Shown: in pieces, positions 7,697 to 63,762 of the stretch
How the letters are laid out: each line of letters starts with the position of its first letter
Position numbering within the stretch: the stretch's first letter is position 1
Notes under the pieces: generated by a model
Seen by the model: only the letters and a program-made list of their open reading frames with translations
Told to the model about the DNA's origin: nothing
The model's database searches: none
Made by a program: the position numbers and the translations under genes
Assembly: GCF_004010195.1 (NCBI RefSeq)
Contig: NC_057719.1
Location: 39,484,252 to 39,548,251 of the forward strand
DNA: 64,000 nt
Direction: 5' to 3'
Source: Chiloscyllium plagiosum
Lineage: Eukaryota

Positions 7697-7795
7697 ATTT
7701 CTGACGAAGGGCTTTTGCCAGAAGCATCAGTTCTCCTGCTCCTCAGATGCTGCTTAACCTGCAGTGCTTTTCCAGTACCACACTCTTGACTCTCG
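7697..7795 (+). mobile_element. Penelope terminal-repeat fragment with degenerate hammerhead
   Basis: ctgacga-agggc-tttt-gcca-gaag followed by tctcctgctcctcagatgctgc, the same family as 25065-25264. Confidence 0.75.
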
Positions 7796-11269: not shown

Positions 11270-11406
11270 AAATCAGCCCTGAAGAAGGGTTACATCCGAA
11301 ACGTTGGCTTCGCCACCACCTGTCACTGCCTGGCTTGCTGTGTTCTTCCAGCCTCCTCCTTGTCTACTTTGGATTCCAGCATCTGCTGGTTTTTTTTGTC
11401 TCTAAC
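11270..11406 (+). mobile_element. Penelope terminal-repeat fragment carrying an intact-looking minimal hammerhead
   Basis: Hammerhead followed by gcctggcttgctgtgttcttccagc...ttccagcatctgc tail, shared with other copies in the window. Confidence 0.75.
11275..11309 (+). ncRNA. Minimal type I hammerhead ribozyme (Penelope-type)
   Basis: agcc-CTGAAGA-a-gggt-tac-atcc-GAAA-cg-TT-ggct: stem I agcc/ggct, stem II gggt/atcc, full core, palindromic AACGTT in place of stem III. Confidence 0.75.
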
Positions 11407-11967
11407 CTTTCAGCATCTTGATCAACAGGTGGTAGAACTAAACTGTTTAATACATTTCAAGAAAGGACTACACCAATTCTGACTGACAAATGTTTTATTA
11501 TTAATATTCCTAGGGAGACTTTGATAGGTAGGCTAGATGGACCAAAAATCATTTGTTTGATAGTTTACATGTTATCAATACAGCTCCAGTTGCAAGTCAG
11601 CAACAGAAGATGGAATTTACCTGGCAATATAATTTATAGAGATAATTGGCCTACAATTCTACCTACTATTGTATCAAGCTTAAGTTAGCTTCTGAGCACC
11701 ATAAAACATTGATTTGTCAGTGCTCCATTCTATGAACAAAGTTTTTTGTCATTCTGAAAAGCATCAAAATGAAAATATAAATGTTGTTTAAATTATACTT
11801 TCAATTCTCCTCTGTTAATGTTTCTAATAATAGTATTTCTATCACTAGTCTTAGATATTGAAACTAATCTTAAACAGAATAGCATTAAAAGTACAGTTGC
11901 AAATATTTTATGGGTTATTTAATATTTTCTAATTGGTTTGACAGCAAAAATCACAAAGTGTTAGAAT

Positions 11968-12213
11968 AATAGTCAGTTCTTCTGCAACTCTATGTTAGAA
12001 AAATTTCATGCTTTAGAAACCGCGCTTAAAGTGTTGGCCATGTTTCTAAAGTGTGATTTTTCTATAACATGGAGTTGCAGAAGAGCTGACTATTATTCTG
12101 GCACATTGTGATTTTCACTATTACAGTCAACACTTTTTAAAAGTCCCCAATTTGTCAATTGCATTGCAGTGAATTTGCATTGGTAAAACATACATTATAA
12201 CAGAAAGACTGTA
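11968..12213. mobile_element. pogo/Tigger-like MITE relic with internal inverted duplication
   Basis: Begins tagtcagttcttctg, ends ttataacagaaagactg-TA; the termini resemble CAGTC-type TIRs. Confidence 0.55.
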
Positions 12214-20549: not shown

Positions 20550-21590
20550 GATGATGAATGGGATTCTTATCAAGTAGGCTGCTTTGTCTTGAATGAGGTC
20601 AAACTTCTTCAATTTAAGCGGTGCTCATCCAGGCAAATGGGGAGTATTCCATCACACTTCTAACTTTTAGATGGTAAACAAGATTTATGGAATCAGAAAG
20701 TTGATTGTCTACCACAGAATTCTCAGCCTCTTTTCTGCTTAGCATCTAAGTGGTTGGTCCAGTTTGAAATCTGGCCAGTGATAATACAGGATGTTGATAG
20801 CGGGAGATTCAGCAATGCCAATGCCATTGAATGGCAAGGTCAGCTGGTTAAATTCTCTCTTGTTGGAGATGGTAATTGCCTGGCACTTGTATGTACTCAA
20901 TCTTACTTACCATTTATCAGCACAAACCTGAATGTTGTCCAAGGCTTGCTTCATATGGACACCAACTGTTTCATTATCTGAGGAGTTGCAGATGGTGCTT
21001 AACATTATGCAATCATCAATGAGCATTCTTACTTCTGTATTAGATCACAGAAGCTTAGGTCATAAGTATTGTAACTGAAAATGATTGGGCCAAGGACACC
21101 ACCTTAAGGAACTCCTGCAGAATTCCCCCGAAATGAAATGATTATCCTCCATCCAACTGCTTCCATCTTTCTTTGTGCTAGGTATGACTCCAGCCAGTAG
21201 AGACTTTCCCCAATTTTTAATGACTTTGATTTTTCTAGGGCTTCATAATGGTTTTTCTATTTAGTGTTGCCTTTATGGTAAAGGACAATCACTTTCATCG
21301 CAACCGTTAGGTCATTTATTTTGACCATATTTGGAAAAAGGCTATAAAAAAGTGAGGAGCTGAGTGGTCCTGGCAGAATCCAAACTGAATGCAATGAGCA
21401 GCATATTGCTGAGTAAGTGCTATGCAATGGCTCTGTTGATCACTTTGCTCACGATGGAGAGTACATTCGCAGCCACAATTGTCTGAGTTGAAATTCTCCT
21501 GCTTTTTGTGGACAGGGCATACCTGGACAATTTCCCAGTTCCTGGGTAGGTGCTAATGATGTAGCTGGACTGGGAAATTGTACTACATTG
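20550..21590 (-). mobile_element. Family B LINE fragment
   Basis: Homologous to 38305-41230 (same strand) and 44100-45000 (opposite strand). Confidence 0.75.
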
Positions 21591-24084: not shown

Positions 24085-25064
24085 TGATGTCAATATGATC
24101 AAAGCTAACCTTGTATCTTGAATCCAATTTCCTCCATGCTCCCCTATCCCTCGATTTCCTGAGAGATCAAGAATGTTTTATCTCCATATTGAATCAATGT
24201 GACAGAACATGCACAGTCCTTTGGATTAACATAAGAATATACAAAATAGGAACGGGGAAACCAGAAGTCTATTGAACAGGCTCTACCTTTCACTATTATC
24301 ATGGTTGATTTTGAGCTTAAACTTCACTTTCTCACCTGCTCTGCTTTACTCTTCATTCTATGACATATCTGCTTATTCCAACATTAAATACATTGGAATA
24401 TCTACAACCCACTGGAGCAGACAGCTCTGAAGATTTACAACATCTGAATGGAGAAATTTCTCCTCCACTTAATCCTAAATGATTAACCCCTTATCCTGAG
24501 ATTTATGCTCCCATATTCTAGTTACCCTAGATAAAGGAAATTATATCTGTGAGATGTTGTCTGGCAAACTAACCTTTATATTAAATAGGCTCAACACCAG
24601 TTCTCAAACACCTCCTCTTATCTTCCTGGACCATGACCCCATGTGGAACATTAGGCCATTGCATCAACTACGGTCACCAACCTCATTTCATCTGGTGCCT
24701 CCTCTGCCTAGCTGAGCTCATCTTCACTCTGAACAACTTCTCTTTTAACTCGCCTCACTTTCTTCAGGACAGAGAGGTGGCAATGGGTACCTGAATGGGC
24801 CACAGTTGAGCCCGTGTCTTTGTAGGGTATGTGGAGCATCCCTTATTCCATTCCTATTCTGGCCCCTACCCACAACTCTTTCCCCGGTACATCGATGATA
24901 TTGGTGCTGCTTTCCCCTCTTGTTCAGATTTGGAAAAGCTTATCAGTTTCGCTTCCAATTTCCACATGCTCTCATCTTCACTTGGTCCATCTCTAACTCC
25001 TGTTTTCCCTTCCTCGACATCTCTGTTTCTATTTTTGGGGGTAGGCTGGCCACCAATATGCACT

Positions 25065-25264
25065 GAAAATGTGTTGCTGGAAAAGCGCAGCAGGTCAGGC
25101 AGCATCCAGGGAACAGGAGAATCGACGTTTCAGGCATAAGCCCTTCTTCAGGAATGCCCGAAACGTCGATTCTCCTGTTCCCTGGATGCTGCCTGACCTG
25201 CTGCGCTTTTCCAGCAACACATTTTCAGCTCTGATCTCCAGCATCTGCAGACCTCACTTTCTCT
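25065..25264. mobile_element. 200-bp fold-back Penelope-derived element with 13-bp TSD
   Basis: accaatatgcact duplicated at 25052-25064 and 25265-25277; 75-bp inverted arms. Confidence 0.92.
25121..25155 (-). ncRNA. Minimal hammerhead ribozyme
   Basis: Minus strand attc-CTGAAGA-a-gggc-ttat-gcct-GAAA-cg-TC-gat; stem I is weak. Confidence 0.65.
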
Positions 25265-25922
25265 ACCAATATGCACTACAAACCCACCAACTCCCACAGA
25301 TACCTTGACTATACATGCTCACACCCTGCATCATGTAAAGACTCTATTCCGTTCTCCCAGTTCCTGCATCTCCATCGCAATTGCGTCTGGTGATACCAAC
25401 TTTGAAAGGGGGGGGCCTCCAAAATGTCCACTTTCTTCCTCAACTAAGGATCCCCAACATCATAGTTGATGGGAGTCTCAGCTGGGTCCAACCCATCTCC
25501 TGCACTTCAGCCCTCACCCCTGTCTTTCCATCCACAACAGTGATAGGGTCCCCCTTTTTCCTTACCTACCATTCTACCACCTTCCATATTCAGAAAATCA
25601 TTAGCTGGCATTTCTGCCACCCCCAGCAGGATGCCCCCACCAGACACACATTCCCCTCCCCTGCTTTGTCAGCCTTACGCAGGGACTGTTCCCTCCAGAA
25701 CACCCTGGTCCACTCCTCCTTCACTCCCAAAGCCCCACCACCACACGGAAGAACAGCACCTTGTTTTCCACTTGGAAATTCTACAACTTTCTGAGCTCAA
25801 TATCAAGTTCAACAACTTTAGGGCCTGAGCTGTCCCATGACCATATCCCTATCCCCACACCTCAGTTCTTGTTATTACATTATCTGCTATTACACCCAAC
25901 CCATTGCTGACCACTAACAGTG

Positions 25923-26140
25923 TCGATAAAGTGTGACACTGGAAAAAGCACAGCAGATCAGACAGCATCTGAGGAGCAAGAGAATCATGTTTCGGGCTTA
26001 ACTCTGTCCTGATGCAAGGTTAAGCCCGAAATGATGACACTCGTGTTCCTCAGATGCTGCCTGACTTGCTGTGCTTTTTCCGGCGCCACACTTTATCAAA
26101 ATTGACTTCTCCAGCATCTGCAGTCCTCACTACCTTCTAG
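25923..26140. mobile_element. 218-bp fold-back Penelope-derived element with 12-bp TSD
   Basis: ccactaacagtg at 25911-25922 and 26141-26152; diverged inverted arms 25925-26002 and 26019-26097. Confidence 0.88.
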
Positions 26141-27354
26141 CCACTAACAGTGCCCGTTCATAGCTATTCATCCAGCCTGATTGTTATCCACTCCTTTGTC
26201 CAACTGTTCTTCTCTCTCTTTGGGCTCTATCCCCACCTATCATTTACTCTTTACCCCCCCCCACCCTATTTTCTGCATTAGAAGGCAACATTTTCTTACT
26301 ACCATCAGTTCTGAGGAAGGATCATTTGACCCAGAACATTAACTCTGATTTATCTCCACAGATGCTGCCCGACAACCTGAGCTTTTCCAACAATTTGTTT
26401 TTGTTTCTGATATCCAGCATCCACAGTTCTTTCATTTTTAATATTGTTGTCTGTCTTGTCATATTCCTTCAGAATCTTATGTTTCGATTAGATCACTTAT
26501 TTCTATGAACTTCAATTATGGACCTGTTCACTCAACTCCTCATCATTGTGCAACCTTTTGTAACACGAGCCAATCTGGTGATCTTGCTGTTGCCGTAACC
26601 TATTCTGGAATTTTTCATCTATTTGAGAAGTCTGTTTGAAGAGTGGACAATCTATTCCCTTTCCAGCACCTACCCAGTGATCTCGGGATTTATCATGTGT
26701 CAGTGTTGCATATTCTTCACATGTCTGGGAACTAACTTTCACAGTGACATAAAGGATATTTTGGAAATAACATCATTTGTGATATTTTCTAAAGTAAATG
26801 CATCAAATTTCCAATGATCAAGAATATTTTTCAAATTATGAAAGCAGATTCTCATTTTGCTTTTAAAATCTACCTAATCCCACTGGCAATCTCACTGCTT
26901 GCAGAATATTGTTTAAAAAAAACTTTCAAGGTTAGATCAATTGGAATTGCAACATAGATACAGATGATACTGAATCTTGGGAAATGTGCCATTAGCCAAG
27001 CTGTAAATTGGTTATTAACACTATAATAAATCCCAGTCTAAACTAACTGTAAAACAAAAGTATAATAATGTAAAAGTCAGAAAATTCGTTTAATCATTTT
27101 TACACTCTACGTTAAGCAGACATTACTTGAATTATACCTTGCACATTTAGTATCCATTTGTGAATCTACTATATATCTCTGGAATAATGCCATTGACCCA
27201 AGTAGGGATTGATATCCAGTTTGAAGTGCAGTCAGTACTTAATTGAGCACAAACTGACTCCAGGAGTCATGCTCTACACTAAGCGCCACTTTTTAAAATA
27301 AGTCGTCACTTACTCCAAATTGAAGTATTACCATACACACAATATATAACTGAC

Positions 27355-27965
27355 ACTCCTTCAGCCTACTCTCGATCATCGGTAAATTGATAAACGTTGT
27401 CATCAAAGGTGCTATTAACCAGCACTTGCTCAGGAATACGCAGCTCATAGATGCCCATTTTGGGTTCTACCACAGTCACTCAACTTCTGACCTCATTACA
27501 ATCTTAATTTAAATGTGAACAAAAGAGCTGAATTTCAGAGGTGAAGTAAGAGTGACATCATAACCGCATTTGACCAGGAGTGACATCATGCTTTGTGTCA
27601 GTTGGAGCTATACCTGGCGCATACGATGGTTGGGATTATTGAAAGTCAATCATCTCAGCTTGAGGACATCTCTGCAGAAATTCCTTGCAGTGATGCCCTA
27701 GGCCCTACCACCTTCAGTTGCTTCATCGATGACCTTCCCTTCATTCTAAGGTTTGCCAATGATTGCATAATGTTCAGCACCATTCACAACTCTTCATAAA
27801 TGAAAGCAGTCCATGTCCAAATGAAGCTTGACCTGAACATTATTTAGGCTTGGACTAAGAAGTGGCAAGTAACATTCATGCCACAAAAATGATAGGCATT
27901 GCCCATCACATGTCCATTGGCATTTGGTGGCATTACCATTAGTAGATGACACACTGCCAATACTC
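27355..27965 (+). mobile_element. Family B LINE RT fragment
   Basis: LGPTTFSCFIDDLP...FANDC (ORF 27593..27799). Confidence 0.8.
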
Positions 27966-28439
27966 TGTTTTGGGGGGGTGGTAGTGGTGGGGGTGAGAGT
28001 GCAGAGAGTGACAGTTTCTGAAGCCTGGCTGTGTTTTAAAATTACATTGAAAAATTATTTTAATTCACTAATGCTAGAATAAAGCAAGCAAGTAAGGAAA
28101 TTTGTAATTAAGATATTAAGAATGCTTTGTTTAATGACAACATCTGTAAGCCATTTGGATAACTATACAAGCGTAATTAAATGCAGAGTTGCTTCAATAA
28201 AACAGAGAATCCATTTTCACACTGGAACTATTCCAAACAAAAAAAAACCACGGACCAATGTTCCACTTTTTTGTGACTGTCTTCTCGTTAAAAAAAATAT
28301 TTTTAAGAAGTGGGCATTTTAAAAATAAATTCACTCCCATTGTATGCCCTATCACCCTGACAATTTAAATCTTATAGAGCTTTTGAGAACTCAGCAGGTG
28401 TGCCACTTATCAGAGTGTCCAGCTTACCTCACCCAATGA

Positions 28440-29050
28440 TAATGTCATTGCATGTCAAGGTACATATAAAGGACAATGGGAAGATTCTTTTGTTGGTGGG
28501 CATTGACTGACACTTCTGTGATGCAAATGTTGCCACTTGCTGACCCAAGCCTGGATATTGTTCAGGCCTTGCTACATTTGGACACTGACATCTTTGGTAT
28601 TTGAGGAGTCATGAATGGTATGAGTGAATATCCTAACATCACACTTATCTCCCCTCCGGTATTAGATTTTTTTGTCCATGTTTGAGTTAAGGCTGTAATA
28701 AGGTCAAGACTGTGTGGCCCTGGTAGAATCCAAACTGTGTGTCAGAAAGCAAATTATTGTTACGCTAGATAGCATTGATGATCCCTTCCATTACTTTGCT
28801 GATGATCAAGAATACACCAATGGGGCAGTAATTGGCTGGGTTGAATTTGTCCTACTTACTGTGTATGGGACATAACTGGGTAATTTTTCACACTATTGGG
28901 TAGATGTCAGTGTTGTGGCTGGACATGAACAGCGTGGCGAGGGACTCAAGTTCCTGAATACTATTGCTAGAATGCTGTCAGCTCTTGTAATATCCTGTGC
29001 TTTCAGCTACTTATTTATATCACTCAAAGTGAATTGAGGTGACTGAAGCG
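28440..29050 (-). mobile_element. Family B LINE fragment
   Basis: Homologous to 39000-39850. Confidence 0.7.
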
Positions 29051-63561: not shown

Positions 63562-63762
63562 AACAAACACAGAGAATGCTAGAGAAACTCACCAGGTCGG
63601 GCAGCATCTGTGGAGAAAGTGGGACTCCTCTTCATTGCTGAAGATATTACCTGACTTGAAGCCTTAACTCTGTTTCTCTCTCTACAGATGTTGCTAGACC
63701 TGCTGAGTTTCTTCAGCACTCTGTTTTTTCAGGTTTCCAGCAGATGCAATATTTTGCCCTTA
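63562..63762. mobile_element. Old fold-back Penelope terminal-repeat element within an old CR1 fragment
   Basis: cagagaatgctagagaaactcaccaggtc...cagcatctgtggagaaag is inverted relative to ctctctacagatgttgctagacctgctgagtttcttcagcactctg. Confidence 0.65.

Follow-up and report, generated by a model that had tools for sequence, protein, structure and literature searches.

The 64-kb window (the whole stretch of 64,000 nucleotides that was analysed) carries a protein kinase gene on the plus strand (Pkinase, E 1.4e-22), which from its resemblance may belong to the MARK family, with exons found near 18.1, 31.2, 37.9, 47.2, 49.9 and 52.2 kb. The intron flanked by the exons at ~18.1 and 31.2 kb contains an older, decayed Penelope-like element (PLE), and the RT of this element is in turn interrupted by a 200-nt hairpin insert, which lies thousands of bases away from the nearest exons found. 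The features of the host PLE and its insert, and of two further hairpins in the window, are as follows.

24690-26430 (right boundary approximate), plus strand: host PLE, older, decayed and 5'-truncated, with RT and downstream coding remnants at 24690-25764 and then a 3' region (protein homology)
25052-25064, plus strand: left TSD, 13 bp; the inverted arm begins within it, the last 2 nt being common to both (2-nt microhomology, likely the priming point)
25065-25156, minus strand: inverted pLTR copy, untailed, extending in full to the 5' end common to the family, which lies 5 nt before the hammerhead core (arm comparison and the pile of loose ends at 25156)
25120-25155, minus strand: minimal type I hammerhead motif (motif scan, folding and the family majority at 25132)
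25154-25156, no strand: head-to-head junction, a 3-nt microhomology common to both copies (sequence, with loose ends behind 25156 and before 25154/25155)
25154-25264, plus strand: direct pLTR copy, 5'-truncated in the helix II loop, lacking the CUGAnGA core and bearing the tail
25229-25264, plus strand: 36-nt PLE tail, spanning the interval from one family 3' end to the other (loose ends at 25225/25229 and 25263)
25265-25277, plus strand: right TSD, 13 bp
25911-26152, plus strand: second, older hairpin stub with a related pLTR and its own 12-bp TSD, ~630 bp downstream in the same host PLE
63566-63760, plus strand: third, old hairpin stub from another pLTR family, with a third type of centre and no convincing TSD

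The 200 nt between the two TSD copies are organised around a pair of 75-nt arms (25063-25137 and 25154-25228) that differ only at 25132, where A is present and the other arm implies G. A 16-nt spacer (25138-25153) separates the arms, and the 36-nt tail lies outside the right one; on this account terminal inverted repeats are not found at both extreme ends, and we rejected a MITE, a DNA transposon, as the identity of the insert. The TSD is exact over 13 bp (25052-25064 = 25265-25277), and when 13-mers were drawn at random from the window, exact recurrence in a comparable 60-nt slot was seen in 2 of 200,000 draws. The coordinates of arms, spacer, tail and TSD listed in an earlier note on this DNA were every one confirmed by sequence comparison, as was its statement that removal of the insert restores the reading of the host Penelope RT: with the insert and one TSD copy cut out, one frame is open across the site and reads ...GGRLATNMHYKPT.... 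Each read on its own strand, both arms are the same terminal repeat (pLTR), which opens with a minimal hammerhead motif, and the two copies of this repeat are arranged head to head with a 3-nt overlap at 25154-25156.

Protein matches continue on either side of the insert, which therefore splits a PLE RT. Residues 600-630 of P0010, a 924-aa protein with RT and GIY-YIG domains by Pfam, align to 24968-25060, and residues 628-690 to 25265-25456. A full HMMER search with the flanking host RT gave 944 matches, the best of which include proteins of 800-950 aa, and when six of the host-RT relatives were scanned with Pfam, all six contained RVT_1 and/or GIY-YIG and four contained both. A word-indexed protein search returned no match for the host RT piece, although full HMMER did, and Pfam gave no match on the 87-aa host RT piece or on five short PLE-derived peptides. 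Near 26305-26430, the 3' region of the host PLE has a degenerate hammerhead and a pLTR of its own, so that a repeat homologous to the insert arms closes an element whose coding remnants match RT and GIY-YIG proteins; an autonomous element of the donor family was not seen in this analysis. We also note that position 25411 in the host flank is G in the window but T in both same-species DNA runs, representing either an allele or an assembly error.

Given that palindromes are hard to assemble, and that no contig displayed spans the whole unit, it might be asked if the hairpin arose from two separate insertions, from a later rearrangement or from an assembly artefact. A single exact TSD encloses the whole unit, the host frame resumes exactly beyond it, and both ends of the insert coincide with the family-wide pile-ups of ends described below, all of which argue against these origins and make them very improbable.

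To define the family to which the insert belongs, reads and contigs from four runs (three DNA and one RNA, of 24 listed, with ~2% of the RNA run sampled) were aligned to 24700-25600. At a threshold of at least 90%, 56,271, 56,259 and 65,073 contigs were placed from the three DNA runs, together with 1,968 RNA reads, almost all of them on the insert. RNA depth on the flanks was 0-1, and the RNA reads therefore represent the family only and not the insert locus. In run X1 the summed depth in the tail bin was 10.0M, as against 15-17 for flank contigs, a ratio corresponding to roughly 2x10^4 to 6x10^5 copies, which is not a true copy number as overlapping contigs may count twice. Pattern scans for the repeat family gave 0 matches in metagenome contigs, viral contigs and prokaryote genomes.

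At 25156, each of the four runs shows a pile of loose ends (116, 112 and 103 contigs and 172 RNA reads), which marks the family's 5' end; further piles are located at 25225/25229, which corresponds to the untailed end, and at 25263, the tailed end (441, 335 and 113 contigs and 787 RNA reads). The tail, which the earlier note had called unique, is unique locally, but these piles identify it as the normal 3' end of the family. No piles of RNA starts or ends were reported in the RNA run, whose library type is unsuited to show them.

The family thus delimited by two 3' ends and one 5' end shares no single centre. A total of 580 joints were listed, and 12 of the 15 displayed break off from the left copy within 25145-25155 and resume in the right copy at one of 10 positions (25184-25241), several of the displayed joints carrying filler letters or long skips. 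The exact centre of the insert, being the alignment reference, cannot appear among the 580. RNA reads over 25147 number 418, of which at least 172 depart from the reference at 25156, and those over 25164 number 280, of which at least 153 join it at 25154-25155 with a different sequence upstream; up to 127 of these 280 are unexplained by the loose-end rows displayed. An empty-site allele was not present among the 15 displayed joints or among 24 of the ~180,500 pieces. One contig of run X1 (piece 4, with 9 differences) begins matching at the right TSD, leaving 9 letters unmatched, and may be a paralogous host copy that lacks the insert.

The other hairpins in the window can be compared with the insert directly. 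In that at 25911-26152 the tailed arm is full length, the inverted arm is cut in helix II and a 4-nt filler is present, a polarity that is the reverse of that of the insert. Across the three head-to-head hairpins the called arms are separated by 16, 45 and 56 nt, and the truncation patterns differ. Related repeats occur at 7.7, 11.3, 26.0, 26.3, 30.05, 60.6 and 63.6 kb, and in four of the other copies or arms (near 7700, 11279, 30050 and 63635), as well as at the end of the host PLE, the motif begins within ~7 nt of the core.

Several additional features of the window repeats are worth recording. Most pLTR copies have a pyrimidine run followed by AG just before a conserved ATG (25186, 26054, 26362, 30089, 63688 and 7747), resembling a splice acceptor; in the subfamily of the insert this AG is replaced by GG. 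Two other inverted arrangements were noted: a 74-bp inverted repeat at 11947-12115 (85%, 21-nt spacer), unrelated to the PLE repeat and with no clear TSD, which is possibly an old MITE-like element, and a pair of inverted 90-bp segments at 27779-28619 (74%, 661 bp apart), which are likely oppositely oriented fragments of another old repeat.

The variety of centres bears on the proposal that the insert is a non-autonomous hairpin retroposon with a fixed centre, in which transcription covers all 200 nt and a PLE RT acting in trans recognises the tailed end and copies the unit entire. Such a route has precedents, since the pLTR sequences of rotifer PLEs are described as sufficient for trans mobilisation (PMC3846280) and non-autonomous PLE derivatives are known (bioRxiv 10.64898/2026.07.22.740005). 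It would also account for two displayed contigs that bridge a near-identical centre with 2 gaps (piece 11 of run X5, depth 5.7, and piece 19 of run X7, depth 51), from which it follows that similar centres recur. However, a fixed 5' end meeting a 3-nt microhomology would also be expected to give a recurring centre, and the unit appears to lack a promoter upstream of it. The 580 joints, the different centres in all three window hairpins and the RNA reads near the centre that lack the insert's junction (the two groups counted above) are difficult to reconcile with a unit copied intact. We consider this proposal improbable for the insert. To an equally small degree we would entertain the idea that some of the head-to-head stubs are self-propagating noncoding hairpin retroposons, with the 200-nt unit copied whole from the tailed end by the PLE RT, the centre kept and the ribozyme silenced by the antisense arm.

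A fixed-unit family of the MITE-like or SINE-like type, whose copies would share one length and one internal junction, was rejected for the repeats as a whole on the strength of the window hairpins and the listed joints. The earlier note had envisaged a discrete, MITE-sized, ribozyme-centred family, and had itself proposed that inversion points differing from copy to copy would point away from a family; the three window hairpins, no two of which have the same centre, and the joints listed speak against the fixed family. What has held up is its description of a young, PLE-derived, TSD-flanked retroposed insert. The hairpin, though real and young, is an unremarkable stub of a Penelope-like element that is present in very great numbers.

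We next consider the hammerhead motif. On the minus strand, the 5' strand of helix I (25155-25152) is followed by the core (25151-25145), an extra nucleotide (25144), helix II (25143-25132, 4 bp) and GAAAC-GUC (25131-25124), with the predicted cut between 25124 and 25123. All of the core letters of a minimal hammerhead are present on this strand (CUGAnGA / GAAA / NUH, with the extra nucleotide between 9 and 10.1), as the earlier note had recognised, but its word "complete" overstated the case. The conserved G10.1-C11.1 pair is a G-U in the insert as a result of the mismatch at 25132 (a CpG-type change), and helix I is reduced to 2 bp, a U-U mismatch and 1 bp, with pair probabilities in isolation of 0.09, 0.08 and 0.01. 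In the family, G predominates at 25132 (8.09M of 11.13M depth in run X1; 383 of 484 RNA reads), which keeps the G-C pair. The tailed direct copy lacks the CUGAnGA core and so corresponds to the arm with half a motif that had been described previously.

Folding predictions place the motif in an unfavourable context. Helix II has a predicted probability of 0.0000 in the full minus strand, compared to 0.90-0.97 when isolated, and of 0.0000 also in all five prefixes ending 0, 4, 10, 20 and 40 nt beyond the cut site; thermodynamically, enforcing the hammerhead fold is predicted to cost 34.7 kcal/mol and helix II alone 11.1. On the minus strand the antisense arm is transcribed first, ahead of the hammerhead. 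The G-U pair, the 2+1-bp helix I and the early transcription of the antisense arm argue against hammerhead function in the insert, and the folding models predict that the motif is sequestered in the hairpin as a passenger that does not fold in this context. A search with the Rfam hammerhead models, as the earlier note had suggested, gave no match at the insert with E up to 5; these models expect helix III. Matches at the insert to miRNA families in Rfam were all below the gathering score and were set aside as generic hairpin matches.

Other hammerhead-like sequences were observed in the family and in the window. With the changes 25121 A>T and 25170 T>A, a minority variant of the family regains 4 bp in helix I; it makes up 0.2-11% of the depth in DNA and 11-15% of the reads in RNA, and possibly represents a subfamily with an intact hammerhead. 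A solo pLTR of another family at 11270-11315 has an intact core, a 4-bp helix I and G-C at 10.1-11.1; it is a better ribozyme candidate than the motif of the insert, and would be on the pre-mRNA strand if the kinase transcript reaches there. A weak Rfam match to HH9 at 20824-20883 (E 1.3, 18.6 bits) likely arose by chance because the sequence lacks the core letters.

On the plus strand, that of the kinase pre-mRNA, there is no CUGAnGA core, the hammerhead being antisense to the pre-mRNA, and a very stable stem is predicted (-157.8 kcal/mol), in keeping with the long dsRNA stem that the earlier note had placed in the kinase intron. Such a stem raises the idea that the hairpin has been retained as a regulator of the host kinase, acting either through ribozyme cleavage or as an intronic dsRNA that is edited or diced. 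RNA reads show, family-wide, 15 A>G and 11 T>C places, as against 6-7 and 7-10 in the DNA contigs, and A-to-I editing of such intronic stems is plausible. This excess is nevertheless not evidence of editing, because changes of a non-editing type are raised in RNA as well (25121 A>T in 73 of 476 reads versus 0.5-3% of DNA depth, the DNA being unmatched). The absence of a hammerhead core from the pre-mRNA strand, the youth of the insert, its status as one of very many copies and its distance from the exons also count against a regulatory role, which we regard as highly unlikely.

The repeat contains a frame that is open from 25186 for 26 codons, up to the end of the tail. When it was compared with the N-termini of 9 long relatives (36 comparisons), the best result was equalled or exceeded in 5 of 500 shuffles and no match was convincing; no homologue was found for this frame, nor did a word-indexed protein search return anything for a 40-aa frame across the centre. 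One protein, P0142, begins with 10 residues similar to the pLTR frame, followed by RT sequence.

Taken together, these observations are best explained if an abundant PLE contributed its hammerhead-bearing terminal repeat twice, as copies placed head to head of which one is tailed, in what was likely a single insertion: both target ends would have primed short cDNAs, which would then have been joined at the 3-nt microhomology. We hold this explanation with considerable confidence. From what is directly observed, namely how the insert is built and that the family has two 3' ends and one 5' end in common but many different centres, we infer the following steps. The GIY-YIG nuclease of the element would make a staggered cut in the target, giving rise to the 13-bp TSD, and each target 3'-OH would prime reverse transcription inside the RNA, at either of two start sites ~36 nt apart. 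The RNA itself likely starts at an initiator-like site ~5 nt before the hammerhead core, and the cDNA would run off after only ~90-130 nt. The left cDNA would have reached the 5' end of the RNA, and the right one would have been joined or trimmed within the helix II loop.

Two of these steps have consequences for the family as a whole. If the RNA starts near the hammerhead core, its run-off cDNAs could only be short, which would account for the abundance of copies the size of stubs; and if cDNAs are primed, shortened and joined in each insertion event, the centre of the hairpin is likely built anew each time. The common 5' end sits at TCATTC (loose ends at 25156; the copy at 30.05 kb), which is similar to the initiator consensus, and it is from this consensus and the pile-ups of ends that we infer a transcription start near the core. 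The tail ends ~116 nt past the start of helix II.

The mechanism that we favour recalls the twin priming of L1 elements, in which two primings at one target lead to an inverted insertion with microhomology at the junction; inversion and junction microhomology from two primings are the points of likeness. It differs in that L1 primes at a poly(A) end and inverts a different segment of the RNA, whereas the insert has no poly(A) and its two copies represent one and the same segment.

The need for two primings follows from the orientation of the spacer, which reads in the sense direction from the tailed end: this rules out fold-back of the tailed cDNA alone, and fold-back of an untailed cDNA cannot supply the tail. 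An alternative in which the element and the stub are the same but the centre is formed differently is that an untailed, full-length cDNA folds back to pair with 3 complementary bases of its own, 16 nt further upstream, and from there primes synthesis of a sense copy; this copy would then hybridise with a tailed cDNA from the other target end. This route competes only with the start-site priming, run-off and joining steps set out above, and within the preferred explanation we assign it the smaller share, as a possibility to be taken seriously but the less likely of the two. The geometry of the microhomology permits the 16-nt loop, and self-priming has been proposed for the inverted junctions of PLEs (PMC3846280). 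In addition, the arms carry identical letters at three family-variable sites (25087/25204, 25109/25182 and 25113/25178), an agreement that, judged on the letters themselves, fits one arm having been copied from the other, or two cDNAs from one source. On the other hand, fold-back still requires a second priming to provide the tail, and the filler letters and long skips in several of the displayed joints, like the 4-nt filler of the 25911-26152 hairpin, fit end-joining.

As a single locus the insert has little weight, being one young copy among very many. The family, comprising tens of thousands of short, young, TSD-bounded hairpins, is by contrast a dataset for the mechanism of PLE insertion, in which twin priming and fold-back could be separated by counting the polarity of the spacer relative to the tail and the cases in which the two arms come from different subfamilies. 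PLE hairpin stubs are also an annotation hazard, as they mimic miRNA precursors and MITEs. The route by which PLEs make insertions with an inverted copy and a tail is described as unresolved in the papers drawn on here (PMC8557442, PMC11167929, PMC3846280). In a limited look at the open-licence PMC and bioRxiv literature, no paper was found on PLE stubs of the shark type or on twin priming by PLEs; such stubs may nevertheless be shown in figures or supplements of the cited papers.

The arrangement of the insert is familiar from other PLEs. Their insertion pattern has been described as an inverted, 5'-truncated copy with a 30-40-bp tail at one end (PMC8557442, Craig et al., 2021), and rotifer PLEs are reported to have an inverted pLTR that overlaps the direct one, a 31-bp tail, TSDs of 8-10 bp and TATA/Inr-like motifs in the pLTR (PMC3846280, Arkhipova et al., 2013). 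As in such EN+ PLE units, the insert has an inverted, 5'-truncated pLTR placed head to head with a small central overlap, a hammerhead in the pLTR, a tail at one end only (36 nt, matching the two family-wide 3' ends) and an exact TSD that surrounds the whole unit. It is only 200 bp long and lacks an ORF body because both copies stop at or inside the hammerhead. The insert differs from the rotifer examples in the length of its TSD (13 bp versus 8-10 bp) and in a copy number that is orders of magnitude higher. By its sequence features, it passes the structural tests of a truncated EN+ PLE insertion.

For metazoan PLEs, minimal hammerheads are reported to be weak, acting only as dimers in vitro, and to occur mostly as solo copies from truncated PLEs, with opposite-strand pairs 100-700 bp apart noted; G10.1-C11.1 is conserved, and helix I is typically 4-5 bp, with 2 bp in D. 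virilis (PMC4209133, Cervera and De la Pena, 2014). Relative to the features given there, the insert has the same core letters, the extra nucleotide between 9 and 10.1 and no helix III beyond a palindromic 15.1-16.1 stretch, but it is set apart by the G-U at 10.1-11.1, the 2+1-bp helix I, the 75-bp stem enclosing the motif and the partner arm with half a motif. Non-LTR retrozymes, for their part, are described as head-to-tail tandems with at least two complete hammerheads (bioRxiv 10.64898/2026.07.22.740005). The insert resembles them in being noncoding, derived from a PLE pLTR and equipped with a type I hammerhead; as a single head-to-head unit with one core and a sequestered motif, it was rejected as a retrozyme of the kind described in that source.

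The closest biochemical parallel is provided by PAc, the Poseidon element of Anolis carolinensis, as studied in vitro (PMC11167929, Frangieh et al., 2024). According to the main text of that work, which does not treat head-to-head stubs, reverse transcription initiates at two sites within the RNA, and the segment separating them constitutes the tail; cleavage and extension take place on both target strands, the hammerhead cleaves only with the help of protein, and mutating it leaves insertion unimpaired. The PAc ORF opens at stem II, and RT initiation falls 111-118 nt downstream of that point (PMC11167929), whereas in the insert the frame from the helix II region stops after its 26 codons. The spacing between stem II and the more distant start site is nevertheless similar in the two systems, 111-118 nt in PAc and, as read from sequence alone, ~116 nt in the insert.
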